Assembly (NCBI GenBank): GCA_943350875.1
Contig: CALRAL010000002.1
Coordinates: forward strand, 68,221 to 132,220
Direction of reading: 5' to 3'
Length of the DNA: 64,000 nucleotides
DNA from: Candidatus Nomurabacteria bacterium
GTDB lineage: Bacteria > Patescibacteriota > Minisyncoccia > Phycocordibacterales > UBA9973
A program made the translations under genes and the position numbers. Numbering within the stretch: position 1 is the stretch's first letter; every line of letters starts with the position of its first letter. This document shows, one piece after another, positions 3,207 to 34,851 of the stretch. A model generated the notes under the pieces. The model had not been told where the DNA came from. It did not search any database and saw only the letters and a list, made by a program, of their open reading frames with translations.

Positions 3207-3776
3207 ATGGAAGAATTTGAAATAAAATTTTTAGAGGTTGATGTGCCGAGTCTTGAGAAAAAGTTGGTTGAAATCGGTGCTAAAAAGGTGCTGGACATTA
3301 CTTATCGTAGGAGGGTATTTGATTTCCCAGATTTAAGATTAGCCAATAATCATTCTTGGCTACGTTTGCGTGACGAGGGAGACAAAGTGACTTTCACATA
3401 CAAAAAGCGTTTAGGTACCAAAAAAAATCAATTAAAAGATGATAGTATGCACGAGATAGAAGTGATTGTCAGTGATTTTGAAAAGACTGCAGATTTGATT
3501 AAATCAACAGGAATGATTGAAAAATTCTATGAAGAAAATAAGAGAATTAAATACGAGTTAGATGAAGTTGAATTTTGTTTAGATGAGTGGCCCTTAATCC
3601 CACCATATCTTGAAATAGAAGGGAAAAGTTGGGAAAAAGTAAAAGAAGCTACATCAAAGCTTGGTTTGGACTGGGAAAAACATATTAAATGCTCGACGAT
3701 GCAGATATATAAACATTATGGTATAGAGGAGAATGATTTTTCTATTTTAACTTTTGAAAAACAAGTAAAAAAATAA
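3207..3776 (+). CDS. CYTH-domain protein (class IV adenylate cyclase / triphosphatase fold)
   Basis: N-terminal EFEIKFL (ExExK) motif and overall CYTH pattern. Confidence 0.55.
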   Translation: MEEFEIKFLEVDVPSLEKKLVEIGAKKVLDITYRRRVFDFPDLRLANNHSWLRLRDEGDKVTFTYKKRLGTKKNQLKDDSMHEIEVIVSDFEKTADLIKSTGMIEKFYEENKRIKYELDEVEFCLDEWPLIPPYLEIEGKSWEKVKEATSKLGLDWEKHIKCSTMQIYKHYGIEENDFSILTFEKQVKK

Positions 3777-3838
3777 TTTTTGCAATTTAGGTTTTTTCTG
3801 GTAAGATAAGGTTATATTATTATTTAGTATTTTTATTT

Positions 3839-4423
3839 ATGAAACATCCAAAAGAAGAGAGGACATATGTGATGATAAAGCCGGACGGTGTCAGAAAAGG
3901 CTTGACTGGGGAGATTATAAAGCGTTTTGAGCAACGTGATTTAAAGATTGTAGCTCTTGAGATGTTCCAACCTAAGCATGATCAATTAAATGATCATTAT
4001 CCAAAAAGTGAAGAATGGATTACGAGACTAGGCCATAAAACTCTTTCCACTTATCAAAAGTATGGCTATGATGCAATGTTAGATTTTGGAACTTTAGAAC
4101 CAGAAAAAATAGGCCCTGAGATTCGTAAATGGCTTATTGATTATATGAAAACAGCTCCATTAGTAAAAATGGTAGTACAAGGAGTACATGCGGTGGATGT
4201 TGTGCGTAAAATTGCTGGACAGACTATGCCATATGTAGCTGAGATGGGAACAATTCGAGGAGATTTCTCTATAGATAGTCCTGCACTAGCTAACAAAGAA
4301 AAAAGAGCTGTGATGAATATTGTGCACTGTTCAGAAACTCCAGAAGAAGCAGAACATGAGATAAAACACTGGTTTGGAGCAACTAAATTACATGAATATA
4401 AACGTTTTGGAGTGGATGAATAA
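3839..4423 (+). CDS. ndk: nucleoside diphosphate kinase with ~40-aa insertion
   Basis: ERTYVMIKPDGV, TIRGDF, NIVHCSETPEEAEHEI motifs. Confidence 0.8.
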   Translation: MKHPKEERTYVMIKPDGVRKGLTGEIIKRFEQRDLKIVALEMFQPKHDQLNDHYPKSEEWITRLGHKTLSTYQKYGYDAMLDFGTLEPEKIGPEIRKWLIDYMKTAPLVKMVVQGVHAVDVVRKIAGQTMPYVAEMGTIRGDFSIDSPALANKEKRAVMNIVHCSETPEEAEHEIKHWFGATKLHEYKRFGVDE

Positions 4424-4442
4424 AAAATTTGTATTCAGAAAC

Positions 4443-4482
4443 AAAAAAGGAGTCTCGTCTAGTTGCGGGACTTTTTGTTTTT
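4443..4482 (+). terminator. rho-independent terminator after ndk
   Basis: GGAGTCTCG..CGGGACT hairpin with one G-U pair, followed by a T-run. Confidence 0.45.
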
Positions 4483-4685
4483 GTTAGAATTTAAGTAGGG
4501 TTATTTCCGATTATTACCTAGAACAATATTTTAAGGGAGTCTCGATCACTTTTAACCTTGGTTAAAAATGTCTGACACCCACCTAAGCGTGAGCTATGGT
4601 AATATATCTGAAATAGTCCTAAGAAGAGATTCGCCATTAAATTTTTCAGGCGGATTTTTTCTTTTAAATAAGGTATAATTACAAA

Positions 4686-5120
4686 ATGGATAGGAGAAAG
4701 CTTCTAAAGCATCTGACATACCTTATATTTTTTATTTTTATCATAAATACTTTAGCCTTGAAGCTGTATTGGTATTCTCTGATCTGGTGGTTTGATATGC
4801 CGATGCATTTTATGGGTGGATTCTTTATAGGGCTTTTATGGATGTTTGTTTTTCCACCCAAAGATCTTAGTTTCAAATCCATTTTGAAAATAATTTTAGG
4901 AGTTTTATTTATAGGAATTTTATGGGAAGTTTTTGAAGTATTTTTAAACAATTATACTGTCCAAAATCCATTTGATATGATTGACACTCTCTCAGATATT
5001 TTTTTTGACTTCGTGGGAGGTATTTTTTCTTTCTTTTATTTTTCAAAAAGAATTATAAATATTAAAGCCTCGCCCGTAGGTCAAGAGCCTACTGGCTATG
5101 GCCGAGGGAAAAATGTATAA
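4686..5120 (+). CDS. polytopic membrane protein, function unknown
   Basis: Multiple hydrophobic helices; a TATAAT lies 11 nt upstream. Confidence 0.4.
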   Translation: MDRRKLLKHLTYLIFFIFIINTLALKLYWYSLIWWFDMPMHFMGGFFIGLLWMFVFPPKDLSFKSILKIILGVLFIGILWEVFEVFLNNYTVQNPFDMIDTLSDIFFDFVGGIFSFFYFSKRIINIKASPVGQEPTGYGRGKNV

Positions 5121-5136
5121 TCAAATTATGGCAAGC

Positions 5137-6492
5137 ATGGTAAAAATATCTTTTTTTGGAGGTACAGGCTCGGTGACTGGGGCGAATTTTTTATTGGAAG
5201 CTGAAGGCAAAAAGATCTTGGTTGACTGTGGGCTGACTCAAGGGATGAAATTAGCGGATGATATAAACTGGGATCCTTTTCCTTATGATCCAAAAACTAT
5301 AGATATGCTTTTTATTTCTCATGCGCATGTGGACCATATAGGTAGGATTCCAAAAATAATAAATGACGGTTTTCGAGGTAAAATCTATTCTACTAAACCA
5401 ACGAAATCTCTAGCTAGCCCGATGCTTGAAGATACGATGGGAATATTATCTAAAAATACAGAATTTGGTTTGGATAAAATATACACCGAAGAAAACATCA
5501 GATTAGCTCTCGCAAATTGGTTGTCATATGATTATCATGAAAAAATAAAAATCACAGATAACTTCGAAGTTTCTTTTAGAGATGCAGGACACATATTGGG
5601 TTCAGCGATGTTTGAATTTATTTTGAATGGTAAGAAAATTCTTTTTACAGGAGACTTGGGTAATAGCCCTTCACCACTTCTACCAGATACAGAAAAGGTG
5701 ACAGATGTTGATTATTTAATAATGGAATCTGTGTACGGGGATAGGAACCATGAATCTAGAGAGGATCGTAGGAAATTCTTAGAAGAAACAATAGAAGATA
5801 ATTACAAAAGAAAGGGAACTCTCATCATCCCTACTTTTTCTTTGGAGCGTTCGCAAGAACTTCTTTTTGAATTAAATACTTTAGTTGAGGGGAATCGTAT
5901 TCCTGTGATGCCTGTGTTTTTAGACTCCCCTTTGGCTATACATTTGACAGAGGTTTTTAAACAATACAAGGATTATTTTAATAAAACTGCGCAAAAAGCA
6001 TTATCTAAAGATAAATACTTATTCGATTTTCCCGGACTTCACTCCACTCTTCGTTCAGAAGAATCAAAAGTTATTGGTACAGTGCCAAATCCTAAAATAA
6101 TTATCGCTGGTTCTGGTATGTCCTCAGGTGGTAGAGTGGTGCATCACGAGAGACATTATCTACCAGATCCGAATAATACTCTTCTTCTGACGGGTTACCA
6201 ATCTGTAGGTACCCCTGGACGTTTAATCCAAGAAGGGGCAAAAACTGTACATATCACAGGCGAGGATGTCCCAGTGCGTGCGCATGTCGTGACTATTTCT
6301 GGATATTCAGGACATAAAGATTCTGATCATTTACTTTCTTTCGTAGAAGATATGGAAGACACAGTGAAGAAAGTTTTTGTGGTTATGGGTGAACCAAAAT
6401 CTTCTATGTTTCTAGTACAGAAATTAAAAGATAATTTGGGCATAGAAGCTTATGCTCCAGAATATGGCGACAGTGTTTCATTTATCTGTTAG
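5137..6492 (+). CDS. MBL-fold beta-CASP RNA-metabolising metallo-hydrolase (RNase J/CPSF-like)
   Basis: ISHAHVDHIG metallo-beta-lactamase motif and a beta-CASP-like C-terminus. Start chosen at MVKISFFGG; ATGs at 5113 and 5128 are also possible. Confidence 0.6.
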   Translation: MVKISFFGGTGSVTGANFLLEAEGKKILVDCGLTQGMKLADDINWDPFPYDPKTIDMLFISHAHVDHIGRIPKIINDGFRGKIYSTKPTKSLASPMLEDTMGILSKNTEFGLDKIYTEENIRLALANWLSYDYHEKIKITDNFEVSFRDAGHILGSAMFEFILNGKKILFTGDLGNSPSPLLPDTEKVTDVDYLIMESVYGDRNHESREDRRKFLEETIEDNYKRKGTLIIPTFSLERSQELLFELNTLVEGNRIPVMPVFLDSPLAIHLTEVFKQYKDYFNKTAQKALSKDKYLFDFPGLHSTLRSEESKVIGTVPNPKIIIAGSGMSSGGRVVHHERHYLPDPNNTLLLTGYQSVGTPGRLIQEGAKTVHITGEDVPVRAHVVTISGYSGHKDSDHLLSFVEDMEDTVKKVFVVMGEPKSSMFLVQKLKDNLGIEAYAPEYGDSVSFIC

Positions 6493-10507: not shown

Positions 10508-10635
10508 CTCTCAAATGAGCTACAAAAACCACATTTCTGAAATACGAGATGTGGTTTTTTTTTATTTATACTACAAAACAATACGGTCGTCTTGTTTCAT
10601 AGTATACACAGGCAACGCCTGTGTATTTAATTTTG

Positions 10636-11033
10636 TGGAGATGCGGGGAATCGAACCCCGGTGCAGAAGGTTTTTACAAAGAAATCTACATACCTAGCGC
10701 ACTTTTTGGTTTAAATTGAAAAATTCTTAAGCGAGCCAAATATTTTTCAATCGATTCCTTTTGTTTCGAAAAAAAGTCAGGAAATTCTTTTCTCTATCCC
10801 GATTATATTATGCCTGCCCTCATATATCGGAAGTCTATGAGAGAGACACAAGCTTACGCTAAAGCGGAAACTTGAGCAAAAGCAAAGTCCTTCATACCGA
10901 AGTATGGAGAAGCGATTGCTTTTACTTTAGAAGCTAATTTTGCAATTAACATTTGAGCGAATTTTTATGAGATTACGCCCATGCTCAGTATGCATCAATG
11001 GTAAAAAGCCAACTGTCTATGCCTTGCATCCCC
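10636..11033 (-). ncRNA. ssrA: tmRNA (SsrA)
   Basis: 5' end GGGGAUGCAAGGCAUAGACAG... pairs with the 3' acceptor strand ...CAUCUCC-A and includes a G3:U70 wobble (alanine identity). A T-arm CGGGGTTCGATTCCCCG sits immediately 5' of the acceptor. An internal open frame ends ...FAFAQVSALA-TAA (stop at plus 10854-10856). smpB is immediately upstream on the same strand. Confidence 0.8.
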
Positions 11034-11046
11034 ATGAATTTTATTT

Positions 11047-11505
11047 TCAACGATCTTTAAAATCTCTCCTTAGCTCTCTATCTGTCTCCCGTTTTTTAAT
11101 AGTCTCGCGTTTATCATGCTTTTTCTTGCCTTTTACGAGGGCTATATCTATCTTTATCTTCCTACCTTTATTATACACTGACATAGGCACAATCGTCAAG
11201 TTTGTTTTTTCATTTTTTGCTAATTCTCCTATTTCTTCTCTAGTTAACAATATTCTCCTATTGCGTAATGGGTCATAATTCTTCGGTGCATTTTTGGGTT
11301 GATATGGAGGAATGTTGGCATTTATTAAAAAGATTTCTCCTCCACGCACAACAATAAAGGCTCCTTCGAGTGACATCTGTCCATTACGAACTGATTTAAC
11401 TTCACTGCCAAGTAGCTCAATACCCGCTTCGTATTTTTCCAAAATTTCATAATCAAACCTCGCTTTTCTGTTTTCTACATAATTAGACATATTTAATCTT
11501 AACAC
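11047..11505 (-). CDS. smpB: SsrA-binding protein SmpB
   Basis: NRKARFDYEILEKYEAGIELLGSEVKSVR and IPPYQ motifs. Confidence 0.9.
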   Translation of the reverse strand: MLRLNMSNYVENRKARFDYEILEKYEAGIELLGSEVKSVRNGQMSLEGAFIVVRGGEIFLINANIPPYQPKNAPKNYDPLRNRRILLTREEIGELAKNEKTNLTIVPMSVYNKGRKIKIDIALVKGKKKHDKRETIKKRETDRELRRDFKDR

Positions 11506-11552
11506 AATTTCTTTGGCTTTTCTTTAGTATTTTTTTGTGCTATCTTTTAATT

Positions 11553-13463
11553 ATGGATATTAATTTTTTGAATAAAAAGACTGAACAGAACAAGGGTAAA
11601 AAAGGGAAAGAGCCAAAGTTTGGCAGAAGCCTTGCTTTGGCACTTTTTTTCTTTATGCTCATCACGGCATTTTATTTGGCGGTTTCTGATACATCAAAAA
11701 ATACTCCTGAGATTTCTATTTCTGATTTAGCAAAAAGTGTCTCGGCTGGAGAGGTCAAGAATATATTAGTAGAAGGAGAGAAACTCACTATCACATATAA
11801 GAATGATGAAATAAAAAGTACTAAAAAAGAAATTGAATCTTCTCTTTCACAAACACTTTTTAATTATGGAGTAAAACCAGATGCGCTTTCTAAGACAAAT
11901 GTGGAGATAAAAAATGAAAGTGGCTTTGGTTTTTGGTTGATGAATATGTTGCCATTTTTCTTGCCAGTTATTTTTATCGTGCTTTTCTTTTGGTATCTTT
12001 CTCGCCAAGTCAAAGGTGCAGGCATGCAAGCATTTTCTTTTGGTCAATCAAAGGCGCGTATCACAGATCCGAATGACAAAAACAACAAAGTGACTTTCAA
12101 AGATGTGGCTGGATGCAAAGAAGCGAAAGAAGAATTGAAAGAAATTGTAGATTTCTTAAAAAGTCCTAAAAAGTTCTTGGATATTGGAGCAAGGATTCCT
12201 AAAGGAGTCATTTTGACTGGTGCTCCGGGTACAGGGAAGACATTACTTGCCAGAGCTGTCGCAGGCGAATCCAGTGTACCGTTCTTTCATTTATCAGGAA
12301 GTGAGTTCGTAGAAATGTTTGTGGGCGTTGGAGCTTCACGAGTGCGTGATTTGTTTAAAATGGCCAAAAAAGCTGCCCCAGCCATCATATTCGTAGATGA
12401 AATAGATGCAATAGGACGAACTCGTGGGGGAGGATTTGGTGGGGGGAATGATGAAAGAGAGCAGACATTAAACCAGATATTGGTGGAAATGGATGGTTTT
12501 GAGCCAAATGACAAGGTGATAGTGATGGCGGCGACGAACAGGCCTGACGTTTTGGATCCAGCTCTTGTCCGCCCAGGACGTTTCGATAGAAAAGTCATTC
12601 TTGATTTACCAGATCGTGCAGACAGAGAAGCAATATTAAAAATCCATGCAGAGAAAAAGCCACTAGCTGAGGATATTAATCTAAAATTAATTGCCGAACG
12701 TACTCCTGGGTTCTCTGGTGCAGATCTGTATTCACTCATGAACGAAGGGGCAATCTTGGCAGCGAGAGAAAACAGAAAAAAAGTTTTCCAATTTGATTTG
12801 ATTCGCGCTATTGAAAAAGTAATGCTTGGACCGGAGCGTAAAAGTCATTTACTTTCTAAAAAAGAAAAAGAAATCACTGCGTATCATGAAGCTGGGCATG
12901 CTCTCGTGGCTTCGGTGTTACCTTATGCTGATCCAGTACATAAAGTCTCTATTATTGCTCGTGGCAATGCTGGGGGATACACACTCAAGCTCCCACTGGA
13001 AGAAAAACGTTTACAATATAAAAAAGAATTTATTGATGACATAGCGATGTCGCTTGGTGGATATGTGGCAGAGAAAATGATTTTCGGAGACATCACTACT
13101 GGGCCGTCGAGTGATCTCCAAGGGGCGACGAACCTCGCCCGGGCGATGATTACACGTTTTGGAATGTCAGATGTCATCGGTCCAGTAGCTCTCGCGCCGA
13201 ATGGGGGCCGGTCTTTGAATGGGGAAGTTTTTGAGCGAGATTATTCGGAAAGTGTTTCCACTAAGATAGATTCTGAAGTTTCAAAAATAATAGACAATGG
13301 CATAAAGTCAGCAGAGAAAGTGCTGACTGAACACAGGAAAGCACTCGATGCCATCGCAAACAAGCTTATAGAGGTAGAGACCCTAGAGCAAGAAGAATAT
13401 GAGAAAATCATAGTGGCACATGGTATAACTCCAAAGAAAAAGGACATAGAAAAGATTGGTTAA
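11553..13463 (+). CDS. ftsH: ATP-dependent zinc metalloprotease FtsH
   Basis: N-terminal TM helices, AAA Walker [18 protein letters not shown], second region of homology, HEAGHAL zinc site. Confidence 0.9.
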
Positions 13464-13523
13464 TCCATGTTTTTTGTGTTATTCTAGCAAATATTCCACC
13501 CTTAGCTCAGTTTCCGCCAGAGG

Positions 13524-13552
13524 CGAACCAGCCTATGGCTGGGGTTAGCTTT
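13524..13552 (+). terminator. putative terminator hairpin after ftsH
   Basis: CCAGCC-TAT-GGCTGG stem followed by a T-rich tract. Confidence 0.35.
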
Positions 13553-13559
13553 ATTGTTT

Positions 13560-13805
13560 ATGTTTAGAATATATGTGTTAAAAAGTTTAAAAAATGGAAA
13601 GAGATATGTTGGTTATACGAGTAAAATGTCTGAAAAAAGACTAATCGAACACAATTCAGGATCTAATGCTTTTACAAGACAAAATAGGCCTTTTGTGCTA
13701 ATCTATACCGAGGAATATAGTACAAAAACTGAAGCAATAAAAAGAGAAATTTTTTTGAAATCGGGACAAGGAAGAAAATTTTTAGATAAAATTATCCGCG
13801 TGTAG
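13560..13805 (+). CDS. small GIY-YIG nuclease-family protein
   Basis: IYVLKSLKNGKRYVGYT (GIY...YIG) motif; the stop codon overlaps the first bases of the downstream tRNA. Confidence 0.6.
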   Translation: MFRIYVLKSLKNGKRYVGYTSKMSEKRLIEHNSGSNAFTRQNRPFVLIYTEEYSTKTEAIKREIFLKSGQGRKFLDKIIRV

Positions 13806-13868
13806 CTCAGTTGGTAGAGCAATCCGCTTATACCGGATCGGTCCCACGTTCGAGTCGTGGCACGCGGA
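13796..13868 (+). tRNA. tRNA with anticodon UAU (Ile-like, reads AUA)
   Basis: Manual cloverleaf. Acceptor CCGCGTG/CACGCGG, D-arm TAGCTCAGTTGGTAGAGC, anticodon stem ATCCG/CGGAT with loop CTTATAC, T-arm CCACG-TTCGAGT-CGTGG, discriminator A, no encoded CCA. Confidence 0.7.
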
Positions 13869-13918
13869 CTTGACAGAAAAGTGCATTAGGTGTATACTAT
13901 GTATACATTTATAATTAA

Positions 13919-15082
13919 TTGATATATAATAATTGTATGAGTTTTCTAAATAATTACGAAAGTAAACAAAAGGGTGGTAAAACTAATCAAGCTCCTGAAG
14001 GTATGACTATGGCTGAGATTCTAGCCAATAAGTCAGATAGTATTAATTTTGGTTTGTATCTAAAAACAGAAAGAACGGATCCAGCTTTAACAGAAAGACT
14101 TATTTCTGGAACTTTAAAAGATGGTGATATTAATGAATTAGAAGGGTTAAGATCAGTTTTTGCTAAAAAGATTGAAAAAGCGAGAGAACTTTCAGACTAT
14201 ATAAATGAAGAAAATGTTGTTTCATTGGCTGGTAAATCTCCTGGGGTTCAGAAGATTTTAAACCTAATGGTTCCAGCAAAAGCGGTAACTGTATTTAAGA
14301 ATATGTTTGAAAAGATGTCTATTACAGATGGAGCTACTTTTAGTACTATATCAAGTGCTATTACAACGCTAGAAGATTACAAAAATGGTAAATTGAAAGA
14401 TGTAGAAGATGGTGTTCAGTGCTTGATAGAGAAATATAGAATTAAAGATGAAGAAGCTTTGACCGAAGCTTTGCAAATAAAGAATAAAGCTAGTAGGGAA
14501 GAAGCCTTAGCAAAGATTGTGAAAGATGGACACGGCAAGATCAGGAAACTTTTTGACTGGATGACCGATGGTAATAGTGGATTCTTCAGAGATCCTTCCT
14601 TAATAGCAAAGGTGTCTGAATTAAATAAGAAAAAAGGTCAGATTGAAAAGGCTATTTTAGAAGTTAATAAGAAAATGAAATCTGTCGGGGAGGTTTTGGC
14701 TAGTTCTGTAAATAACAATCCAGATCTGTTGAATGCTTTTTCAAAAGAATTGATTGGTAAAAAGGTAGATAAAGATGGTAACAATAGTGCTTTCAAAGAT
14801 TTATATTCTGTCCCAGAAACAGAAAAGACTGAAGAAGAAATAATAAAAGAGATGCAAGTTAGTTTGGATAAAAAAATAAAAGATATGGGTGCTACTTGGA
14901 CAGCTAAAACTAAAAAAGAAAAAGATGATTATGTGAATACAGCGTTCAAGAATGACTATAAAGATGATTCCAAAAAAGAATACAAGAAAAAAAGCGGTTT
15001 TTGGAGTTTCTTCTTTAGTATGTTATTTGATAGTTTCGATAAAAAAGTTGATAGTATTGATAAAACTAAATTCAAATATTAA
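13919..15082 (+). CDS. Lys/Glu-rich hypothetical protein
   Basis: Long ORF with no recognisable motifs; start uncertain (several in-frame ATGs). Confidence 0.35.
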   Translation: MIYNNCMSFLNNYESKQKGGKTNQAPEGMTMAEILANKSDSINFGLYLKTERTDPALTERLISGTLKDGDINELEGLRSVFAKKIEKARELSDYINEENVVSLAGKSPGVQKILNLMVPAKAVTVFKNMFEKMSITDGATFSTISSAITTLEDYKNGKLKDVEDGVQCLIEKYRIKDEEALTEALQIKNKASREEALAKIVKDGHGKIRKLFDWMTDGNSGFFRDPSLIAKVSELNKKKGQIEKAILEVNKKMKSVGEVLASSVNNNPDLLNAFSKELIGKKVDKDGNNSAFKDLYSVPETEKTEEEIIKEMQVSLDKKIKDMGATWTAKTKKEKDDYVNTAFKNDYKDDSKKEYKKKSGFWSFFFSMLFDSFDKKVDSIDKTKFKY

Positions 15083-16114: not shown

Positions 16115-18409
16115 ATGAAAAAGATAGAAAAAATTCCAAAAGCTGAATTATCAAAAATAAAATCAATCAGAAAAAGAAGTGGAGAAGTCATCCCTTTTGA
16201 TTTAGAAGTTGTGGTGAGGGCTGTTTCCAAAGCTTTTGAAGTTTCAGGGGAAGGTGGGGAAGATGAGTCTAGAATTGTGGCAAATAATGTTTTCAAAAGT
16301 CTTTTCAAATTACGTTCTGATTTATTGAAAGATAGAAAAGGTGTGCAGTTCTTGCCGACTGTCGAAGTGATGCAGGACTTGGTGGAGAAGGAATTAATGA
16401 ATGCTGGTTTTACTGATACTGCCAAGAAATATATTTTATATAGAAGCAAACGTTCCGAACTCAGAGCTACTTTTGGCCCTGTGCCAGAGGAAATAAAAAA
16501 AGCAGTGGAAGAATCCAGTAAATATTTCTACAGTCCATATTCAGAATATATTTTCTATCAATTTTATTCACGATGGGTACCAGAGTTAGGACGCAGAGAA
16601 ACTTGGATAGAAACCATAGACAGATATATGGCCTATATGAAGGAAAATATGGGTAATAAATTAACCGAGAAAGAGTACGAAGATGTAAGGCAAGCTATCA
16701 TAAATCAGGATATTTGCCCTTCTATGCGACTTTTATGGTCTTCGGGCAAGGCATGTCGTAATTCAAATGTCTGGGCTTATAATTGCTCATATATCGCTCC
16801 TACTTGTTTTCAAGATTTAGGGGAAATTATGTATATTTTGATGTGTGGAGCAGGACTAGGATTTGCCGTGGAGTGGGAAAATGTCCAACAATTTCCTCAG
16901 ATCAAAAAACAAGTAAAAGAAAAATCATCTATTCATCTCGTAGAAGACAGTAAAGAAGGCTGGGCTAATGCATTTGTTTTGGGACTCAAGACTTGGTTTG
17001 ATGGTAAGGATATGAAGTTCGATTATTCTATGATTCGTCCTGCAGGTGCGCGTCTTGAGACAGCTGGAGGTAGAGCTTCTGGACCACAACCGTTGATGGA
17101 TTTAATGGAATTTGCAAGAACAAAGATTTTATCTAAACAAGGTCGTCGTCTTTCAAATATGGATATGCATGATGTGATATGTCAGATAGGGATGATCGTG
17201 GTAGCAGGGGGAGTCAGACGTAGCGCCCTCATCTCTCTGTCTGAACTTGAAGATACAGAAATGCGTGATTCGAAGAAAGGACAATTCTATGTAAATGAGC
17301 CACAACGTTCGATGGCAAATAATTCTGCGGTTTATAGCGCCAAGCCTTCAGCCGAAGAATTCTTGGAAGAATGGACTGCCTTGGTAAAGTCTGGTTCTGG
17401 TGAACGTGGAATATTTAACAGAGGAGGATTAGAAAAACAATTGCCAGCTCGCAGATGGGAAGCTGTAAAAGATGAAAGGCAATTAGGGCTTAACCCTTGT
17501 GGAGAAATTTATCTACGTTCAAAACAATTTTGTAATTTGACGAGTATTGTTATCCGTCCAAAAGATACGATAGTCACCTTAAAAAGGAAAATGGAGTTAG
17601 CAACATTGCTCGGTACTTATCAATCCACTTTGACAAACTTTGGTTATTTATCAAAGAAATGGAAAGAGAATTGTGAAGAGGAGAGGTTGCTCGGAGTATC
17701 ACTCACTGGATATTATGACAATCCGATTATTCGTAATGACAAAGTGCTAGATATTTTGAGAACTGATGCTATTGAGACAAATAAAAAATATGCAAAGCGT
17801 TTTGGGATAAATGCTTCGACAGCTATCACTTGCGTAAAACCACATGGGAATTCCGGTCAACTTTTAGGGGTAGGTTCCGGTATGCACCCTTGGTTTGCCC
17901 CATATTTTATCCGCAGAGTTCGTATTTCTCATACTGATACTTTGCTTCAAATGGCTCGTGACCAAGGAGTACCTTGTTTGCCAGAAGTTGGACAATCTGC
18001 GGAATCTGCGACAACTTTCGTATTAGAATTCCCGGTCAAAGCACCAGAAGGGGCAATATTCAAAGATGAAGTTTCTGCCCTTGATTTGATGAAAGAATGG
18101 AAAAGACTCAAGGAACATTTTGTGGAGCATAATCCTTCGGCTACGATATATGTCGGTCCTGAAGAATGGCTCGCAGTAGGGAATTTTGTTTATGAGAATT
18201 GGGATGTAGTTGGAGGGCTTTCTTTCCTACCACGATCTGAGCATGTATATCAACTTGCTCCTTATGAAGCTATTACTAAAGAAGAATATGAAAAACGTTC
18301 CAAGGCTATTGGTAAAATAGATTTCTCTAAACTTTCTCATTATGAAGCTATCGACAATACGACTGGGGCAAAAGAATTCGCTTGTGTGTCTGGCGTTTGC
18401 GAAATATAA
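16115..18409 (+). CDS. nrdJ: class II adenosylcobalamin-dependent ribonucleotide reductase (monomeric), with N-terminal ATP-cone
   Basis: ATP-cone (RKRSGEVIPFDLEVVVRAV), NPCGEIYL catalytic-cysteine motif, C-terminal Cys pair. No NrdB/NrdF partner is nearby, and a cobalamin adenosyltransferase is adjacent. Confidence 0.75.
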   Translation: MKKIEKIPKAELSKIKSIRKRSGEVIPFDLEVVVRAVSKAFEVSGEGGEDESRIVANNVFKSLFKLRSDLLKDRKGVQFLPTVEVMQDLVEKELMNAGFTDTAKKYILYRSKRSELRATFGPVPEEIKKAVEESSKYFYSPYSEYIFYQFYSRWVPELGRRETWIETIDRYMAYMKENMGNKLTEKEYEDVRQAIINQDICPSMRLLWSSGKACRNSNVWAYNCSYIAPTCFQDLGEIMYILMCGAGLGFAVEWENVQQFPQIKKQVKEKSSIHLVEDSKEGWANAFVLGLKTWFDGKDMKFDYSMIRPAGARLETAGGRASGPQPLMDLMEFARTKILSKQGRRLSNMDMHDVICQIGMIVVAGGVRRSALISLSELEDTEMRDSKKGQFYVNEPQRSMANNSAVYSAKPSAEEFLEEWTALVKSGSGERGIFNRGGLEKQLPARRWEAVKDERQLGLNPCGEIYLRSKQFCNLTSIVIRPKDTIVTLKRKMELATLLGTYQSTLTNFGYLSKKWKENCEEERLLGVSLTGYYDNPIIRNDKVLDILRTDAIETNKKYAKRFGINASTAITCVKPHGNSGQLLGVGSGMHPWFAPYFIRRVRISHTDTLLQMARDQGVPCLPEVGQSAESATTFVLEFPVKAPEGAIFKDEVSALDLMKEWKRLKEHFVEHNPSATIYVGPEEWLAVGNFVYENWDVVGGLSFLPRSEHVYQLAPYEAITKEEYEKRSKAIGKIDFSKLSHYEAIDNTTGAKEFACVSGVCEI

Positions 18410-18976: not shown

Positions 18977-19034
18977 GTTATCCACATTGAGATTTTGTAA
19001 TGTAGATGTATGATGTAGAAGTGTTTAACAAATA

Positions 19035-19200
19035 AATAGGTTCATATTGGGGAAGTGAGGTGAAAGTCCTCCACAGTGCCGCTACGGTAAGTCCGATTTT
19101 GATTGGACAAGTCCGAATACCAATATGATATGTAGTCCCGAGCAGGAATTTAAATACTTAACGTATTTTTAGCCAAATGACTCCTCGGAAGGAGTTTTTT
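19035..19200 (+). promoter_or_regulatory. cobalamin (B12) riboswitch with terminator/SD-sequestering expression platform
   Basis: GGGGAAGTGAGGTGAAAGTCCTCCACAGTGCCGCTACGGTAAGTCCG matches the conserved GGGAA..GGTGAAAnTCC...CCGCTAC.GTAAG core. A downstream AGTCCCGAGCAGGAA B12-box-like segment follows. Hairpin GACTCCTCGGAAGGAGT plus T8 includes the AAGGAG SD, 10 nt before the ATG at 19206. Confidence 0.7.
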
Positions 19201-19205
19201 TATTT

Positions 19206-19634
19206 ATGAAAACAGAAAAATACAAAATTATATTTATAACCGTCGTCTTCATTTTAGTGTTGGTTTTATTATATTCATATAAAAATATCTCTGTTTCTGT
19301 TGAAAATAAAGGCATGAAGAATGTAGATTCTTCTACAGGATCTAAAAAAGAAAATATTTCTGCAACTTTGATTGTTGGGGGAAAAAAAATACTTTTAACA
19401 TCCCAAATAAATTCATCTTTATATGATGTTCTTTTAGAAGCAAAGAAAAATAATCAGATAAATTTTACTGGTAAAGTTTACCCTTTGCTTGGTTTTTTTG
19501 TAGATAGTATTGATAATTTGAAAAATAAAGATGGAAAGTATTTGTTTTATTATATAAACGGTAAAGAGGCATCTGTCGGTGTTTCTAATTATATACTCAA
19601 AGACGGGGACGTGATTGAGTGGAAATTAAAATGA
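19206..19634 (+). CDS. membrane-anchored DUF4430-domain protein (transcobalamin/intrinsic-factor beta-domain-like; putative B12-binding)
   Basis: N-terminal TM anchor, then LFYYINGKEASVGVSNYILKDGDVIEWKL, characteristic of DUF4430. Lies downstream of the B12 riboswitch, with an ATGA overlap to the next gene. Confidence 0.6.
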   Translation: MKTEKYKIIFITVVFILVLVLLYSYKNISVSVENKGMKNVDSSTGSKKENISATLIVGGKKILLTSQINSSLYDVLLEAKKNNQINFTGKVYPLLGFFVDSIDNLKNKDGKYLFYYINGKEASVGVSNYILKDGDVIEWKLK

Positions 19635-21460
19635 AAAAGATATTTTTAGGATTTAGTATTTTTATGAGCTTATTTGTGTTTAATTTTACTTATGCGGAAG
19701 ATGTGGTTCCAGATCCAGTTCTTACTAGCAGTATTACTATCCGTGATGGAGGCAATGTAATTTTTACAGGTGTTATTCCAATCAATTCAGATAGTACTGT
19801 TTTGTCTTTATTAAATGATGCTGACACTTTGAGCCCTGATTTTAATGTTTCTAATATACAGAATTTTTCTTTTGGGGCTTACTTAAAATGCATAACAGAT
19901 ATAAACGGAGAAAGATGTGATAATTGGCAGTATGCAGTTAACAATCTTTATACTTTTTCAAGTATAGATCAATATAAATTAAATGGGGGAGAAAACGTTT
20001 ATATATATTTTGGACCACAAAACAAAGTTATCCTTAGCTCAAATAATATAAATACTAACAATATTTTGACTGTTATAGCGCAAAAATATAATTATCAAAA
20101 TAATACCTGGGAGATAAGGACTGATGTAACTGTTGGTTTAACACAACCAGATTTACAACCCAACCCAAATAACAATTGGTTACCACCATTAGAAATAAAA
20201 ACTAATTTAGTTGATGAAAATGGTCAAGTTACTTTTTCGTCAATATCTGTTGGTTCTTATGATGTTGGAGTTCAGGAAGATGGGTATTTCCCTACCGAAA
20301 AACTAGATGTTATTTCTGCTCCTGTGATAGAGCATCATAGCTCTGGCGGTGGTAGAGCTTATATACTACCGCCAAAGCCAGTTTTTTCTACGCAAAACGC
20401 GATTAATTATTTAAAAAGTTTACAAGTAAATGATGGATCTTTTGGTGGATCTGATATGTACACTGATTGGGTGGGGATTGCTTTGTCTGCCGGAGGGGTA
20501 GCAGATAGTTCTACTAATAGTATAATTTCATATTTTAGTTTACATCCTCTAAAAAGTTCACTTTTGACTGATATTGAACGTAGGGCAATGACACTTCTAG
20601 CCTTGGGGCAGGATCCATACTCATTTAATAATACAGATTATATTTTTTTAATTTTGAAGAATTTTGACGGAATACAATTTGGTGATAAAGATCTAGTGAA
20701 TGATGATATTTTTGCTCTCATTCCACTTAGCGCTTCAGGATATAAAATAGATGATGAGGTTATTTCAAAAGATATCAATTTTATTCTTTCGAAACAAAAG
20801 ACAGATGGTTCTTGGGAAGAAAGTGTAGATGTGACTTCCGCCTCGATCCAAGCATTATCTTTATTTAACTCTTTGCCTACTGTTTCAGACGCGCTTTCAA
20901 AAGCTAGCCTTTATGTTATGAATTCACAAAAGGATGATGGTGGTTGGGGGAACGTTTATTCTACTAGTTGGGCGGTGCAAGCAGGGAATGCCTTAAATAT
21001 TATTTATACCAAGAATGGACATACAGGACTTGATTATTTTGCAAATAATCAGATAAGTGATGGGGGAGTTTTGTCACTAAATGAAACTTTAGAAAATAGA
21101 GTTTGGGCCACGAGCTATGTTATCCCTGCTATGCTTAGCAAAACTTGGAATAGTATTTTTCATCAAGTTCTTAAACCAGTAAAAGTAGATACTAAAGATG
21201 TCGTTTCTAAGATAGTAGAAAATAAATTAAAAGAAAAAGTTGTAGATAAAAAGATAGATAATATAATAAGTATTATAAAAAAAGTTAAAAAAGAGATTGT
21301 TGTTAGTCCTGAAACAGAGAAAATAGAAACAAAAAATATGCTTACAGCTTCAGCCATAGAAAGCCAGACGCGTGTTACTCAAAATGAAACTCCTTCGTTT
21401 TGGCATGAACTTTTTGCAGGAGTAGGGGATATCTTGAGAGTTCTGCATCTTCTTCGATAA
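19631..21460 (+). CDS. secreted protein: N-terminal DUF4430-like domain plus alpha/alpha-toroid (prenyltransferase/terpene-cyclase-like repeat) domain; putative cobalamin-capture protein
   Basis: Signal peptide (MKKIFLGFSIFMSLFVFNFTYA). A second DUF4430-like pattern (NWQYAVNNLYTF...YKLNGGENVYIYFG). Repeated DGSW/DDGGW/DGGV motifs typical of alpha6/alpha6 toroid repeats. Translationally coupled to the upstream DUF4430 gene. Confidence 0.5.
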   Translation: MKKIFLGFSIFMSLFVFNFTYAEDVVPDPVLTSSITIRDGGNVIFTGVIPINSDSTVLSLLNDADTLSPDFNVSNIQNFSFGAYLKCITDINGERCDNWQYAVNNLYTFSSIDQYKLNGGENVYIYFGPQNKVILSSNNINTNNILTVIAQKYNYQNNTWEIRTDVTVGLTQPDLQPNPNNNWLPPLEIKTNLVDENGQVTFSSISVGSYDVGVQEDGYFPTEKLDVISAPVIEHHSSGGGRAYILPPKPVFSTQNAINYLKSLQVNDGSFGGSDMYTDWVGIALSAGGVADSSTNSIISYFSLHPLKSSLLTDIERRAMTLLALGQDPYSFNNTDYIFLILKNFDGIQFGDKDLVNDDIFALIPLSASGYKIDDEVISKDINFILSKQKTDGSWEESVDVTSASIQALSLFNSLPTVSDALSKASLYVMNSQKDDGGWGNVYSTSWAVQAGNALNIIYTKNGHTGLDYFANNQISDGGVLSLNETLENRVWATSYVIPAMLSKTWNSIFHQVLKPVKVDTKDVVSKIVENKLKEKVVDKKIDNIISIIKKVKKEIVVSPETEKIETKNMLTASAIESQTRVTQNETPSFWHELFAGVGDILRVLHLLR

Positions 21461-23675
21461 GGCGTACTGCTTCTGTACGAGCTGCTTCTACCATTTTTAA
21501 GTTTTTAATAGCTTCCATTCCTAGGTCTGTAATGCCCCATTGTTTGGTGCCAGAGAGTTCTCCTGCGCCACGAAGGGTGAGATCAAGTTCTGCTAATTCA
21601 AATCCATTTTTTGCATTTTTTAGAGCTTTTAATCTTTCTATTGTTTTTTCACTTTTGGCTTCAGCAAATACATAGCAATATGCTTGATATGAACTTCTGA
21701 TAACTCTCCCGCGAAGTTGATGGAGTTGAGCAAGTCCAAACCTCTCAGCACCTTCTATTATTATTATCGTGGCATTTGGTACATTTACTCCGACTTCGAC
21801 GACTGAGGTAGCACATAGGATATTTATTTTTCCATCTGTAAAATCTTGCATCACTTCTTCCTTTTTTATTTTCGTCATTTTACTATGCAAGACTCCTATT
21901 TCATATTCTCTAAAAATTTCCTTTTTTAATCTTTTGGCTTCTGAAGTGACTGCTTTCATTTCAAGCTTCGCTCCAGCAGAATATTCCTTTACAGGGTCGC
22001 TGTCTCGGCTTGCTAGCCGAGCGCTCACTCTCGGGCCGTCGCCCTGCGAGAGACCCTGCAAAGGAAAATCTGCTTCTGCTTCAAATATTCTTGGACAAAT
22101 CACGTAGAGTTGTCTACCATTTTTTAGCTCAGTCCTTACTTTTTCATACGTTTCTTCTCTTTTATCTGGAGTCACTATTTCAGTAATTATTTGCTTTCGT
22201 CCTTTTGGCATCTCATCCAGAAGAGATAAATCCAAATCCCCGTATATAGTGAGGGCGAGAGTACGGGGGATAGGGGTGGCAGTCATAGAAAGCAAATGAG
22301 GCACAATATCACCTTTTTTGGCTAATTGTTTTCTTTGATTCAAACCGAATCGATGTTGTTCGTCTATCACTATCAAGGCTAAATTTTTAAATTTAACTGT
22401 TTTTTGAATTAGGGCATGTGTACCTATTAAGATGCTTATTTCTCCACTAGCTACCCACTTTAAAAGTTGTGATCTAGAAATATCTGTCCAACCGTCTGGG
22501 TTTACTTTCGAAGGGAATTTCCTACAACCACTTCCAGTGATGAGCCCGATGTTTATTGGTAGGTGCTTAAAGTATATTATGAAAGATTCAAAATGTTGAG
22601 TGGCTAGTATTTCTGTCGGAGCCATATAAGCTGTTTGTAAATGTCCAAAGTTTTGGGCATTACCTTTTACATCATTTGGTCTTTGTTTGATGGTGGCGTA
22701 GGCGACAGTCGCGGCTACTGCAGTCTTGCCAGAACCCACATCTCCCTCGAGCAAGCGAGACATTGGGAAACTTCTTTCCATATCTGAAAATATCGTATTT
22801 ATAGATTTAACTTGTGATTTTGTAGCTTCAAATGGGAAGCATTTCAAAAACTCTTCAATATCTTTTTTATCTATATTTACTTTAAAAGATTTATTTTTCT
22901 TATATTCATATTTGTCATGCTGGCATTCAAGTTGGATGCAGAAAACTTCTTCAAAGGCGAAACGTTTACGTGCCATCTCCGCATCCTTTTTATTCTTTGG
23001 GGTATGGATCCAGACGAGGGCTGTTTTTAAAGTTGGCAAACTATATTTTTTTAAAATATCAGGTGGAATATAATCTTCTAAAGTATCTAAAAGTCGAGTT
23101 TCTTTTCCGCCCAAGGCGGATCCGCCTTGGGCGGAGAAAATCTTTTGAATAGCGTGATAAAACCATTTTGAAGTTATTCCTTTTGTCTCGCGATAAACAG
23201 GGTAGGAAAGGCCTTTGTCTATTTCATCTTTTTTGTTAAATAAATTGTTGTGCGAATCTATCGGCAATGCACCTATCTTCTCAAATTCTGGGTTGGCTAG
23301 GTACGTACCACTTTTACTGGCTGTTACTTTGCCGGTGAGTTTGACATTATCGCCTTCGTGAATCATCTTGGCCAGATACGCCTGGTGATACCAAATGATT
23401 TTTATTTTCCCAGACAAGTCTGCTATCTCACCTTCTCCCATCGGTATCTTTGAACGAAACCCCTTTTTAGTTTTCAAATTTGAGACTTTTCCATAGACTG
23501 TAGCTACTTCCCCTGGCACTAATTCAGAAATCTTTTTTATTTCACTTATGTCACTGTACCTGACAGGGAAGTAAAACAACAAATCTACCACAGAAAAAAG
23601 ATTCAGGCTACGTAATGCCTTCTTTTGTTTCTCATCTAAACGAAATTTTACTTCAAGTCTATCCTTTAATTCCAT
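21375..23675 (-). CDS. recG: ATP-dependent DNA helicase RecG (with two GC-rich palindromic in-frame insertions)
   Basis: Wedge/OB N-terminus, Walker A DVGSGKTAVA, DEQH box, helicase C motifs. Confidence 0.85.
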   Translation of the reverse strand: MELKDRLEVKFRLDEKQKKALRSLNLFSVVDLLFYFPVRYSDISEIKKISELVPGEVATVYGKVSNLKTKKGFRSKIPMGEGEIADLSGKIKIIWYHQAYLAKMIHEGDNVKLTGKVTASKSGTYLANPEFEKIGALPIDSHNNLFNKKDEIDKGLSYPVYRETKGITSKWFYHAIQKIFSAQGGSALGGKETRLLDTLEDYIPPDILKKYSLPTLKTALVWIHTPKNKKDAEMARKRFAFEEVFCIQLECQHDKYEYKKNKSFKVNIDKKDIEEFLKCFPFEATKSQVKSINTIFSDMERSFPMSRLLEGDVGSGKTAVAATVAYATIKQRPNDVKGNAQNFGHLQTAYMAPTEILATQHFESFIIYFKHLPINIGLITGSGCRKFPSKVNPDGWTDISRSQLLKWVASGEISILIGTHALIQKTVKFKNLALIVIDEQHRFGLNQRKQLAKKGDIVPHLLSMTATPIPRTLALTIYGDLDLSLLDEMPKGRKQIITEIVTPDKREETYEKVRTELKNGRQLYVICPRIFEAEADFPLQGLSQGDGPRVSARLASRDSDPVKEYSAGAKLEMKAVTSEAKRLKKEIFREYEIGVLHSKMTKIKKEEVMQDFTDGKINILCATSVVEVGVNVPNATIIIIEGAERFGLAQLHQLRGRVIRSSYQAYCYVFAEAKSEKTIERLKALKNAKNGFELAELDLTLRGAGELSGTKQWGITDLGMEAIKNLKMVEAARTEAVRLIEEDAELSRYPLLLQKVHAKTKEFHFE

Positions 23676-24858: not shown

Positions 24859-24882
24859 GGGGATATTATAGCATTAATTCTG

Positions 24883-24969
24883 CGGATGAGGTGAGATTCG
24901 AACTCACGGTCCTTTTAAGGGGACGGCGGTTTAGTAAACCGCTGGCTTAAACCACTTGCCTACTCATCC
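24883..24969 (-). tRNA. type II (long variable arm) tRNA, Ser-like, apparent anticodon ACU
   Basis: Manual fold of the minus strand. Acceptor GGATGAG/CTCATCC, discriminator G, anticodon stem GCGGT/ACCGC with loop TTACTAA, long variable arm, T-arm GTGAG-TTCGAAT-CTCAC. Confidence 0.6.
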
Positions 24970-26069: not shown

Positions 26070-26156
26070 GGAGCCGTGGGAGAGCGGTCTAATCTACATC
26101 TTTGCTAAAGATGCAGGGGTTAAACCCCCTCGAGGGTTCGAATCCCTCCGGCTCCG
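26070..26156 (+). tRNA. tRNA-Ser (GCU)
   Basis: Acceptor GGAGCCG/CGGCTCC, discriminator G, anticodon stem CATCT/AGATG with loop TTGCTAA, long variable arm, T-arm AGGG-TTCGAAT-CCCT. Confidence 0.8.
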
Positions 26157-26176
26157 CTAGATTTAATATATTGTTT

Positions 26177-33394: not shown

Positions 33395-34603
33395 ATGCTA
33401 TTTTCATACAAATCCGTAGATGACAAAGGAATAAAAAAGGAGGGAGAGATAGATGCTCCAAATAAAGACAGTGCCATCAGCGCTATCCAGAGGCGTGGGC
33501 TCATCATCACCTCTATTAAAGATATGGGAGATAATAAATCCATCTTCAGCATGTCTTTTTTTAATAAAGTAAAGATGAAAGAAGTGGTTATTCTCTCTAG
33601 GCAGATTTCTACCTTGTTTGAAGCGCAAGTTTCTGCTTTGAAAACTTTCACCATGCTTGCTTCTAGTTCTACGAACCCGCTTTTGCGTTATAAATTAAAC
33701 CAAGTTAGCGATGATTTGCAAGCAGGGCTATCCATCTCTGAAGCTCTTTCCAAGCATCCAGATGTATTTTCAGATTTTTATATCAATATGGTCAGGGTTG
33801 GGGAAGAGACTGGTAAATTGAATCAGACTTTTGCTCATTTGGCAGATTACCTCAATCGCCAATATGAACTTACCTCCAAGACTAAAAATGCTCTCATTTA
33901 TCCTATATTCGTCATTGTCACCTTTTTTGTAGTGATGGGACTGATGTTTGTAGTAGTTATTCCAAAGCTTTCTGCTATTATTCTAGATTCTGGACAAAAA
34001 CCGCCTGTTTATACCCAAGTCGTCATCGCTTTGTCTAGTTTCTTTGTGCATTACGGCTTCATTTTTATCATTTTCCTTATCCTTTTAGGTTTTTGGGTTT
34101 GGAGACTCTCTGCCACAGAGAAAGGCAAGATATATTTAGATAGGTTGAGTTTGTCTATCCCAGCTGTGGGTAGCCTTTACAAGAGACTATATCTTTCCCG
34201 TATTGCGGACAATATGAATACAATGTTAACCTCGGGTATTCAGATAGTGCGTGCGATAGAGATAACAGGGGCGGTAGTAGGTAGTAAAGTATATACAGAA
34301 ATTTTGAAAAATGCAGAAGACGGAGTCAAAGCCGGCTTGGCTTTTTCTACAACCCTAGAAAAGTACCCCGAAGAGATGCCGGGCATTATGGTGCAGATGG
34401 TAAAGGTGGGTGAGGAGACAGGGTCCCTGGGAGCAATTTTGAAGACTCTAGCAGAATTCTACAAACGTGAGGTGGATGACGCGATAGATACTTTAATAGG
34501 GCTTATTGAGCCGGTGATGATCATCGTGCTCGGTCTTGGCGTGGGTATTCTCCTAGTCTCAGTGCTGATGCCTATTTACAATATGGCAGGGAACATAAGT
34601 TAA
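33395..34603 (+). CDS. pilC: type IV pilus platform protein PilC (GspF family)
   Basis: Two T2SSF repeats, 3 TM segments, ~400 aa. Confidence 0.8.
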   Translation: MLFSYKSVDDKGIKKEGEIDAPNKDSAISAIQRRGLIITSIKDMGDNKSIFSMSFFNKVKMKEVVILSRQISTLFEAQVSALKTFTMLASSSTNPLLRYKLNQVSDDLQAGLSISEALSKHPDVFSDFYINMVRVGEETGKLNQTFAHLADYLNRQYELTSKTKNALIYPIFVIVTFFVVMGLMFVVVIPKLSAIILDSGQKPPVYTQVVIALSSFFVHYGFIFIIFLILLGFWVWRLSATEKGKIYLDRLSLSIPAVGSLYKRLYLSRIADNMNTMLTSGIQIVRAIEITGAVVGSKVYTEILKNAEDGVKAGLAFSTTLEKYPEEMPGIMVQMVKVGEETGSLGAILKTLAEFYKREVDDAIDTLIGLIEPVMIIVLGLGVGILLVSVLMPIYNMAGNIS

Positions 34604-34711
34604 AAAATTCAAACCCCTCCTGACCTCCCCTTGTCAGGGGAGGAAAAATATAAAAGTCCCCCTGACAAGGGGGATATAGGGGGTTGTATTCTAAATCTGT
34701 GCATAACTTTC

Positions 34712-34739
34712 TTGCCCTTATTTTTATTATGTTATAATT
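34712..34739 (+). promoter_or_regulatory. promoter TTGCCC-16-TATAAT upstream of pilA
   Basis: Sequence match to -35/-10 with 16-nt spacer. Confidence 0.35.
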
Positions 34740-34851
34740 ATCACATTAGAAAAGTATTTCAGCCAAAGGCTGATCCGCCTCGGGCGGAAAAAATTAAGTC
34801 GAAAAAATTATTATTAGCTTCCGCCATACGCGGATAAATTATAAATAAATT

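Follow-up and report, generated by a model that had tools for sequence, protein, structure and literature searches.

Free-standing homing genes of the GIY-YIG type are known from bacteriophages: SegB, a member of the Seg family of T-even phages, is located in the tRNA gene cluster of phage T4 (PMC2330249). Here we describe a stand-alone gene for a small GIY-YIG nuclease that ends inside a gene for tRNA-Ile with the anticodon UAU, in a stretch of 64,000 nucleotides from a Candidatus Nomurabacteria bacterium (contig CALRAL010000002.1), whose full length is referred to as the window and has a GC content of 35%. The cassette formed by this gene and its surroundings resembles the Seg genes in several respects: the GIY-YIG domain is found outside introns and beside tRNA genes, its presence varies between relatives, and flanking sequences are apparently inherited together with it. 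Unlike the Seg genes, it codes for a protein of 81 aa without DNA-binding domain and belongs to cellular organisms, namely bacteria of the candidate phyla radiation (CPR) and other phyla, and not to phages. Its geometry is also different, because it precisely abuts the 5' end of the tRNA, often shares its stop codon with it, is enclosed by a duplicated 5' part of the tRNA and is accompanied by a twin hairpin.

The closest proteins, both by profile and by fold, are UPF0213/YhbQ (COG2827) and the nuclease domain of Slx1, which are of the same size and consist of the catalytic domain only. Identity is nevertheless limited to 33-39%, and no NCBIfam model matches the cassette protein. To our knowledge, no linkage of UPF0213 genes to tRNA genes has been noticed. 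Slx1, unlike the cassette protein, possesses a RING domain and requires its partner Slx4.

Integrase-borne islands and prophages offer another comparison. They too are inserted in a tRNA gene without loss of its function, with part of the tRNA directly repeated beside the insert. Classical islands, however, repeat the 3' part of the tRNA, whereas the cassette repeats the 5' part and does so over a variable length; moreover, the insert is about 300 bp long, and its sole open reading frame (ORF) codes for a GIY-YIG nuclease and not for a tyrosine or serine integrase. Repetitive extragenic palindromic (REP) sequences and their associated transposases (RAYTs) served as a further comparison system (PMC2817692). 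Short, dispersed, GC-rich palindromes are concentrated beside one small nuclease gene in both cases, but here the enzyme is of the GIY-YIG and not of the HUH/Y1 type, the palindrome is a twin hairpin of 30 nt, its copy number is low and its mobilisation is hypothetical.

Group I introns were described in tRNA genes of Patescibacteria, in a report that leaves GIY-YIG genes unmentioned (PMC13011429). Introns and cassettes have the same hosts and a common preference for tRNA-Asn, and some cassettes even precede an intron-bearing tRNA-Asn (for example locus L078; related loci are denoted by L numbers throughout), their ORF being located outside the intron. The cassette differs in being no intron and in lying outside the mature tRNA. 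A location of the ORF within a group I intron was rejected for the window, where the tRNA is uninterrupted and no Rfam ribozyme or intron model matches within the cassette. Our literature searches found neither an earlier description of the hairpin or cassette nor any paper that connects GIY-YIG genes of CPR bacteria with the 5' ends of tRNAs or with hairpins of this kind, and the cassette is apparently undescribed.

Architecture of the cassette

The ORF is encoded on the forward strand, opens with TTG at 13554 or ATG at 13560 and ends at 13805. As its homologues start with MF.IYVLKS, the ATG is the likely start. The ORF lacks a separate stop codon: the final sense codons CGC and GTG together with the stop TAG (13803-13805) are positions 2-10 of tRNA-Ile(UAU). 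The TAG is thus U8-A9-G10 of the tRNA, and the two genes overlap by 10 nt. Both had been reported in a preliminary description of this DNA, which noticed a GIY-YIG ORF ending at 13805 within the first bases of a well-formed tRNA with the anticodon loop CUUAUAC, and both are borne out. The protein matches the Pfam GIY-YIG family (PF01541) over residues 5-70 with 55.4 bits (cut-off 22.6; E 7.6e-15). The tRNA is recognized by ARAGORN as tRNA-Ile with anticodon tat (13796-13869) and by the Rfam tRNA model with 66.6 bits (13796-13868); the anticodon loop CTTATAC occupies 13827-13833 and the anticodon TAT 13829-13831. The public gene call for this ORF (P0032, 13626-13805) starts from an internal ATG and gives a product of 59 aa, from which the GIY motif is cut off. 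Because public calls start at such an internal ATG, the family is probably under-annotated.

Among 40 sequences, residues Y5, H31 and E63 never vary, and conservation reaches at least 90% at Y16 and R27. By analogy with I-TevI and UvrC, we take Y5 and Y16 to be the GIY and YIG tyrosines, and R27, H31 and E63 to be the corresponding arginine, histidine and metal-binding glutamate. The AlphaFold (AF2) model, with a pLDDT (predicted local distance difference test) of 94.9, adopts the GIY-YIG alpha/beta fold; according to Foldseek, its nearest folds are the UPF0213 structures 1ZG2 and 1YWL, Slx1 (6SEH, template modelling (TM) score 0.71), I-TevI (1LN0) and UvrC (1YD6). Profile comparison likewise retrieved 1YWL and 1ZG2 (E 3e-8 and 7e-8), and the catalytic domain takes up the whole 81-aa protein, leaving no further domain. 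Judged by these profiles, the protein probably represents a clade related to UPF0213/YhbQ, of which it is not a demonstrated member. The match to a PHROG profile named 'homing endonuclease' is weak (2.8e-5). Two other assignments were rejected. PADLOC gave no match to the protein, which speaks against a defence system. As for a phage origin, tblastn matches in phages are weak (33-40% identity); only two relatives matching most of the protein turned up in IMG/VR, and the fetched flanks of both are free of tRNA genes.

The ORF lies between two versions of the same tRNA: on its left, leftover tRNA positions 1-24 with the 30-nt twin hairpin, and on its right, the complete tRNA-Ile(UAU) (Table 1). 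A direct repeat, 13489-13512 and 13789-13812, connects both sides, and TAGCTCAGTT is exact in it. The acceptor part of the leftover fragment, CCACCCT, is similar to the CCGCCCT allele found in L019, L022 and L103. The twin hairpin, hereafter H, splits the fragment at tRNA position 17/18, and the GGTTAGC behind it resumes the tRNA where it was interrupted, since TAGCTCAGTT is directly continued by GGTTAG(AG)C in the tRNA-Ile alleles of L019 and L103; ten bases then follow before the ATG. The fragment occupies the point where the tRNA starts in cassette-free relatives and stands behind the native upstream region, as seen when L004 is compared with L098. A promoter-like site downstream of the tRNA probably serves the next gene and would mark the right-hand limit of the unit composed of cassette and tRNA.

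Table 1. Positions of the cassette, its tRNA and associated features in the window
Feature	Position	Strand	Basis or context
ftsH	11535..13463	+	homologues 83-87% identical, named FtsH; conserved upstream neighbour
Leftover 5' tRNA-Ile fragment, acceptor CCACCCT plus TAGCTCAGTT, tRNA positions 1-17	13496..13512	+	direct repeat
Twin hairpin H, TCCGCC-AGA-GGCGAA then CCAGCC-TAT-GGCTGG, 30 nt	13513..13542	+	motif match
GGTTAGC, remaining D arm (about positions 18-24) of the leftover fragment	13543..13549	+	allele comparison
GIY-YIG nuclease gene, 81 aa, stand-alone	13560..13805	+	Pfam PF01541, homologues, conserved residues, model, dN/dS
tRNA-Ile(UAU), A73 discriminator, CCA not encoded	13796..13868	+	ARAGORN, Rfam, covariation
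Sigma-70-like promoter, TTGACA-17-TATACT	13870..13898	+	11/12 consensus positions; consensus match only
Second H copy, perfect 30-nt palindrome (TCCGCCCAAGGCGGA TCCGCCTTGGGCGGA)	23106..23135	.	in frame within recG ORF 21375-23675(-)
Third H copy (TCAGCCAAAGGCTGA TCCGCCTCGGGCGGA), intergenic	34759..34788	+	64 nt upstream of pilin-like gene (34852)

H stands at the same position in L004, where 27 of its 30 bases are identical to those of the window. Between these two loci, H and TAGCTCAGTT (10/10) are much better conserved than the adjacent flank, which suggests constraint or homogenisation. The consensus of H reads TCAGCC-aga-GGCTGA TCCGCC-tcc-GGCGGA, and its motif GCC-N3-GGC-N6-GCC-N3-GGC occurs three times in the window as against 0.01 occurrences expected. 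The copy in recG adds 10 codons between the wedge and helicase domains of RecG, an insertion that resembles the in-frame palindromic elements of Rickettsia. Near the third copy, the region upstream of the pilin-like gene (34600-34840) also contains two further GC-rich inverted repeats (CCCCTCCTGAC.../...GTCAGGGGAGG types; 34610-34680) and, at about 34820, a single hairpin.

Action of H as an RNA structure is weakly contradicted by the mismatches in its stems, which show no excess of the G·U-compatible kind (13 G·T vs 19 A·C; the method is noisy). The predicted RNA fold of 13489-13562 is unexceptional (z -1.4). A known RNA element upstream of the ORF was likewise rejected: an Rfam search of 13400-13960 at E of 10 or less returned the tRNA and noise only.

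Recurrence at other tRNA genes and at the ftsH locus

We identified 361 homologues of the protein, about 81 aa long and 64-86% identical, the named ones coming from Nomurabacteria, Falkowbacteria, Yanofskybacteria and Paceibacterota. At 50-69% identity, relatives were found in Patescibacteria, Omnitrophota, Bacteroidota and metagenome-assembled genomes (MAGs) labelled as Planctomycetia. The loci collected for comparison comprise at least 14 from genomes and 80 from metagenomes, and downstream counts refer to the 81 distinct copies for which the sequence behind the ORF is 100 nt or longer. A tRNA or a tRNA 5' piece on the same strand adjoins 72 of these copies. ARAGORN places a tRNA directly downstream of 57 (same strand; its start lies no more than 40 nt ahead of the end of the protein match and no more than 150 nt beyond it), 14 are followed by a half consisting of the acceptor and D arm, which belongs to an intron-bearing tRNA-Asn (as in PMC13011429) or to an interrupted copy, and one is followed by a short TAGCT fragment. 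Nothing tRNA-like was found downstream of the remaining nine.

Partner tRNAs span 15 anticodons, with Asn(GUU) represented by 28 cases, Lys(UUU) by 10, Val by 7, Ile(UAU) by 6, Ala by 5, Phe by 3 and Arg by 2, and with single cases of Asp, Pro, Lys(CUU) and a CAU tRNA. Where the ORF enters the tRNA, its stop codon falls on U8A9G10 in 29 of 34 cases (binomial P 6e-10 against 1/3, the loci being not fully independent), and this pattern extends over at least 8 anticodon types. ORFs that do not enter the tRNA have their own stop codon 2-63 nt upstream of it. The final two or three residues of the protein accordingly follow the acceptor stem: RV or GV with tRNA-Ile, PR with tRNA-Asn and tRNA-Phe, GP with tRNA-Ala. 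The juxtaposition is a general architecture found across tRNA species and several phyla, and it is not specific to tRNA-Ile.

The left side of the cassette recurs as well. A repeat of tRNA positions 1-13 with at most one mismatch is present upstream of the ORF at 34 of 57 distinct loci and at 0 of 57 controls, for which up to three mismatches were allowed; the ORF is thus enclosed by a directly duplicated 5' part of the tRNA. At least two GC-rich hairpins of 6 bp are located within 120 nt upstream of the ATG in 64 of 85 distinct copies, compared with 5 of 120 control windows (4%). The position of H relative to the tRNA varies (8/9, 13/14, 17/18, 29/30 or 36/37), also between lineages that have the ftsH/tRNA-Ile locus in common.

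Some loci are more elaborate. In L078 (2440-3400), the GIY-YIG ORF lies between identical repeats of about 55 nt, each made of tRNA-Asn positions 1-13, a twin hairpin and tRNA-Asn positions 14-20, and in the downstream tRNA-Asn a group I-type intron, which encodes an HNH endonuclease, interrupts the gene behind the anticodon. In L015 (2859-3600), from a Bacteroidota MAG, tRNA-Ser(UGA) is followed by two tandem copies of a 51% identical GIY-YIG ORF, and behind each of them stands a copy of the tRNA 3' part, the polarity being the reverse of that in the CPR cassettes.

The window's cassette is located between ftsH and tRNA-Ile(UAU), and this site is filled also in L004 and L018-L022. It is empty in L101/L102 and L103, where ftsH is followed after 16-50 nt by tRNA-Ile(UAU), without ORF or hairpin, and where FtsH is 83-86% identical to that of the window. 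The filled locus L019 and the empty locus L103 have a common upstream flank and an identical tRNA; what L019 has in addition is duplicated tRNA positions 1-16, a hairpin at 8/9 and the ORF of about 270 nt. Tandem cassettes or their remnants are present in L015, L016, L067, L072 and L078, and in L004, L044, L046 and L087 the functional tRNA is closely followed by what is left of the 3' part of an older tRNA copy, with hairpins inserted in it. Alleles of the tRNA form mosaics: the left fragment of L004 equals the functional acceptor of the window, and the sequence downstream in L004 is the 3' part of a third allele. Nearest neighbours in the protein comparison have the same tRNA isotype in 39 of 67 cases vs 29% expected by chance, so that tRNA partners are in part inherited and in part switched. 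Purifying selection acts on the ORF, whose ratio of nonsynonymous to synonymous substitution rates (dN/dS) is 0.08-0.28, with dS saturated.

The preliminary description had likened the juxtaposition to insertion in the manner of homing endonucleases and had suggested a comparison of synteny among relatives. The likeness is supported by the empty sites L101-L103, the duplicated tRNA 5' piece and the range of 15 anticodons. The comparison did yield empty and filled sites, but the arrangement did not prove to be tied to the UAU tRNA. Its generality, the surrounding duplication of the tRNA 5' part and the twin-hairpin repeat had gone unmentioned.

In L098/L099 (4993-5720; Nomurabacteria of the GW2011_GWF2_35_12 type), a different ORF of 207-226 aa with a weak HTH_23 match lies between ftsH and tRNA-Ile(UAU), and the gap between these two genes may be a general insertion hotspot. 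On the other side of ftsH, just upstream, lies a gene for transfer-messenger RNA (tmRNA); the tmRNA and an unannotated ORF of 152 aa occupy 10633-11033 (-) and 11047-11505 (-), respectively. Relatives L098-L103 have SmpB (148-151 aa) upstream of ftsH, accompanied in L101/L102 by a tmRNA. This neighbourhood could matter if an ORF with its stop codon in a tRNA gives rise to non-stop mRNA.

Probable homing and alternative explanations

We consider it fairly probable that the locus is a small, presumably selfish cassette of the homing type, placed before an essential tRNA gene, whose UPF0213/Slx1-like GIY-YIG nuclease is aimed at tRNA genes. The nuclease would break a cassette-free tRNA gene, and the break would be repaired from a cassette-bearing copy, with the conserved 5' and D-arm sequence of the tRNA serving as homology. 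Repair would copy the ORF along with the 5' part of the tRNA or with the whole tRNA, which amounts to homing with co-conversion, and would leave behind duplicated or displaced tRNA pieces of the kind seen at the locus. The ORF would be transcribed together with the tRNA, and cleavage by RNase P at +1 would strip the stop codon from the ORF, keeping nuclease levels low.

Several observations weigh against homing. The protein is devoid of the DNA-binding domain carried by known sequence-specific GIY-YIG homing enzymes, and a simple scan upstream of the ORF gave no promoter-like site. The duplicated tRNA piece ranges from 13 to about 47 nt and H is found at varying tRNA positions, so that no single cut-and-paste geometry accounts for all loci. 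The left fragment of the window, CCACCCT, mismatches the functional acceptor (CCGCGTG/CACGCGG). In L021, the functional copy is a poorer partner for the 3' strand than the left fragment is, so that sequence flow has taken different directions at different loci. Finally, the cassette has persisted through speciation at the ftsH locus, as indicated by saturated synonymous sites, and is under strong purifying selection, which fits a domesticated host gene equally well. Such a gene would have a cellular role, for example in repair or maintenance of highly transcribed tRNA genes or in Slx1-like resolution of branched DNA; the tRNA fragments would be relics of one ancient event, and co-transcription with the tRNA would provide a strong promoter and a processing site. 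Besides the low dN/dS, domestication is favoured by the order ftsH-ORF-tRNA-Ile, which is kept where FtsH is 67-87% identical, and by the domain-only build shared with UPF0213/YhbQ, whose genes are ordinary chromosomal ones. We nevertheless regard it as unlikely, because the ORF is missing from the same site in equally close relatives, because tandem copies, remnants and varied hairpin positions at one orthologous locus indicate repeated events, because close relatives of the protein switch their tRNA partner, and because an identity of 50-69% across phyla is high.

Alternatively, H could be a dispersed non-autonomous palindromic element that is mobilised in trans by a structure-specific GIY-YIG nuclease, in the manner of REPs and RAYTs. 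Hairpins would then accumulate by local hopping into tolerated tRNA remnants, and the tRNA would serve mainly as a safe harbour. This would agree with the excess of H in the window, where one copy is in frame in recG and one is intergenic, with the multiple hairpins upstream of most ORF copies, and with the distribution of strict H matches: of 88 in 394 kb, all but about 6 have a GIY-YIG copy no further than a few hundred nt away. Single tRNA remnants with several independent H insertions (L041, L067) point in the same direction, as does the predicted fold, which is nearest to that of Slx1, a nuclease of branched DNA; the composition of the stem mismatches, too, fits a palindrome acting at the level of DNA. 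On the other hand, the observed copy number of H is low, and 10 low-GC contigs of IMG/VR contain H but no GIY-YIG gene in the fetched flanks. Moreover, we know of no GIY-YIG enzyme that transposes DNA in bacteria, and we find this explanation quite doubtful. The same low degree of belief attaches to its boldest form, according to which H would be a new kind of non-autonomous element, cut or mobilised by the nuclease as a counterpart of the REP/RAYT pair, and the nuclease gene would be shielded in a rebuilt essential tRNA. Since the stop codon is within the tRNA, processing by RNase P would convert the transcript into a non-stop mRNA targeted by tmRNA, and nuclease dosage would thus be tied to tRNA processing. 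As for a mere chance juxtaposition or gene-calling artefact, in which an ORF simply runs on to the first stop codon and that codon happens to fall in a tRNA, the 59-aa product of the public annotation might suggest it. It is excluded for practical purposes by the strong Pfam match, by hundreds of conserved full-length homologues under purifying selection and by the same junction at many tRNAs.

If homing is the true explanation, the cassettes would constitute a compact and widespread class of selfish elements that target bacterial tRNA genes at the 5' end, where integrases use the 3' end. They could explain hundreds of unannotated or misannotated 81-aa 'GIY-YIG' ORFs in CPR genomes, such as the one given as 59 aa in the source record. 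They would also provide a route for horizontal replacement of tRNA alleles, which matters for genomes with one copy per tRNA. The connection of an Slx1/UPF0213-type nuclease fold with a defined DNA context makes the activity testable.

AUA decoding and other features of the window

When the tRNA(UAU) gene of the window is aligned with those of related loci (nine genes in all), 99.4% of cells pair in the cloverleaf, 14 of 21 stem pairs have changes on both sides (covariation score with slid partners 0.07-0.12), and the loop CUUAUAC is invariant. This covariation supports a functional tRNA-Ile(UAU) gene. The gene is located downstream of ftsH in the window, L004, L018-L020, L022, L098/L099, L101/L102 and L103. 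It is a genuine AUA decoder of a clade resembling Nomurabacteria and Paceibacterota, and is independent of the cassette. In 23 genes of the window, ATA is the commonest isoleucine codon (443 of 1008, or 44%; 36 per 1000 codons). At the 18 positions where ftsH has ATA, 119 homologues show I in 79%, V in 11%, L in 6% and M in about 0%, the same profile as for ATT and ATC. Judged indirectly from this alignment and the codon counts, AUA is read as isoleucine and heavily used, in keeping with the preliminary description, which had taken the UAU tRNA for one of the isoleucine type.

Decoding of AUA by an unmodified UAU tRNA was reported from some bacteria lacking TilS, for example Mycoplasma mobile (PMC3575796). 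M. mobile similarly combines a genome-encoded UAU tRNA with an AT-rich, reduced genome in which AUA means isoleucine; the present case is different in that AUA is the commonest isoleucine codon of the window. As tRNA-Ile(UAU) occurs in some bacteria (PMC3575796), its presence alone is no proof of TilS loss; the preliminary description had seen in it a sign that TilS-type decoding is absent or that a special modification exists. The 64-kb window contains neither an ORF with the PP-loop motif (SGGxDS) nor a tRNA-Ile2(CAU), and isoleucyl-tRNA synthetase is not among its ten largest ORFs, the only ones annotated. The sole TilS-like ORF in 531 kb of fetched loci is that of the Omnitrophica contig L070, and a search with it returned TilS of the Omnitrophica type only; literature searches gave nothing on TilS or lysidine in CPR/Patescibacteria. 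With a conserved tRNA-Ile(UAU) and AUA as the main isoleucine codon, this CPR clade is a good place to ask about TilS loss.

In L070 (Candidatus Omnitrophica, 2430-2840), a tRNA fragment, a twin hairpin and the ORF adjoin a tRNA with the anticodon CAU. Because tilS lies about 0.9 kb downstream of it (at about 3740-5243), this tRNA may be tRNA-Ile2(CAU).

Two further tRNA genes and one riboswitch of the window deserve mention. A tRNA-Ser with the anticodon ACU is encoded at 24882-24969 (-), 1.1 kb from tRNA-Ser(GCU) at 26070-26157 (+), which is missing from the Rfam scan at the gathering threshold. Apart from tRNA-Arg(ACG), an A34 is unusual among bacterial tRNAs. In the genes of the window, AGU codons outnumber AGC by about two to one (157 vs 72). 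A riboswitch of the AdoCbl-II (vitamin B12) type was found at 19032-19129 (+), with 38.5 bits at a threshold of 36.5. It is situated between an upstream ORF similar to B12-type ribonucleotide reductase (16115-18409) and a downstream ORF at 19206-19634.

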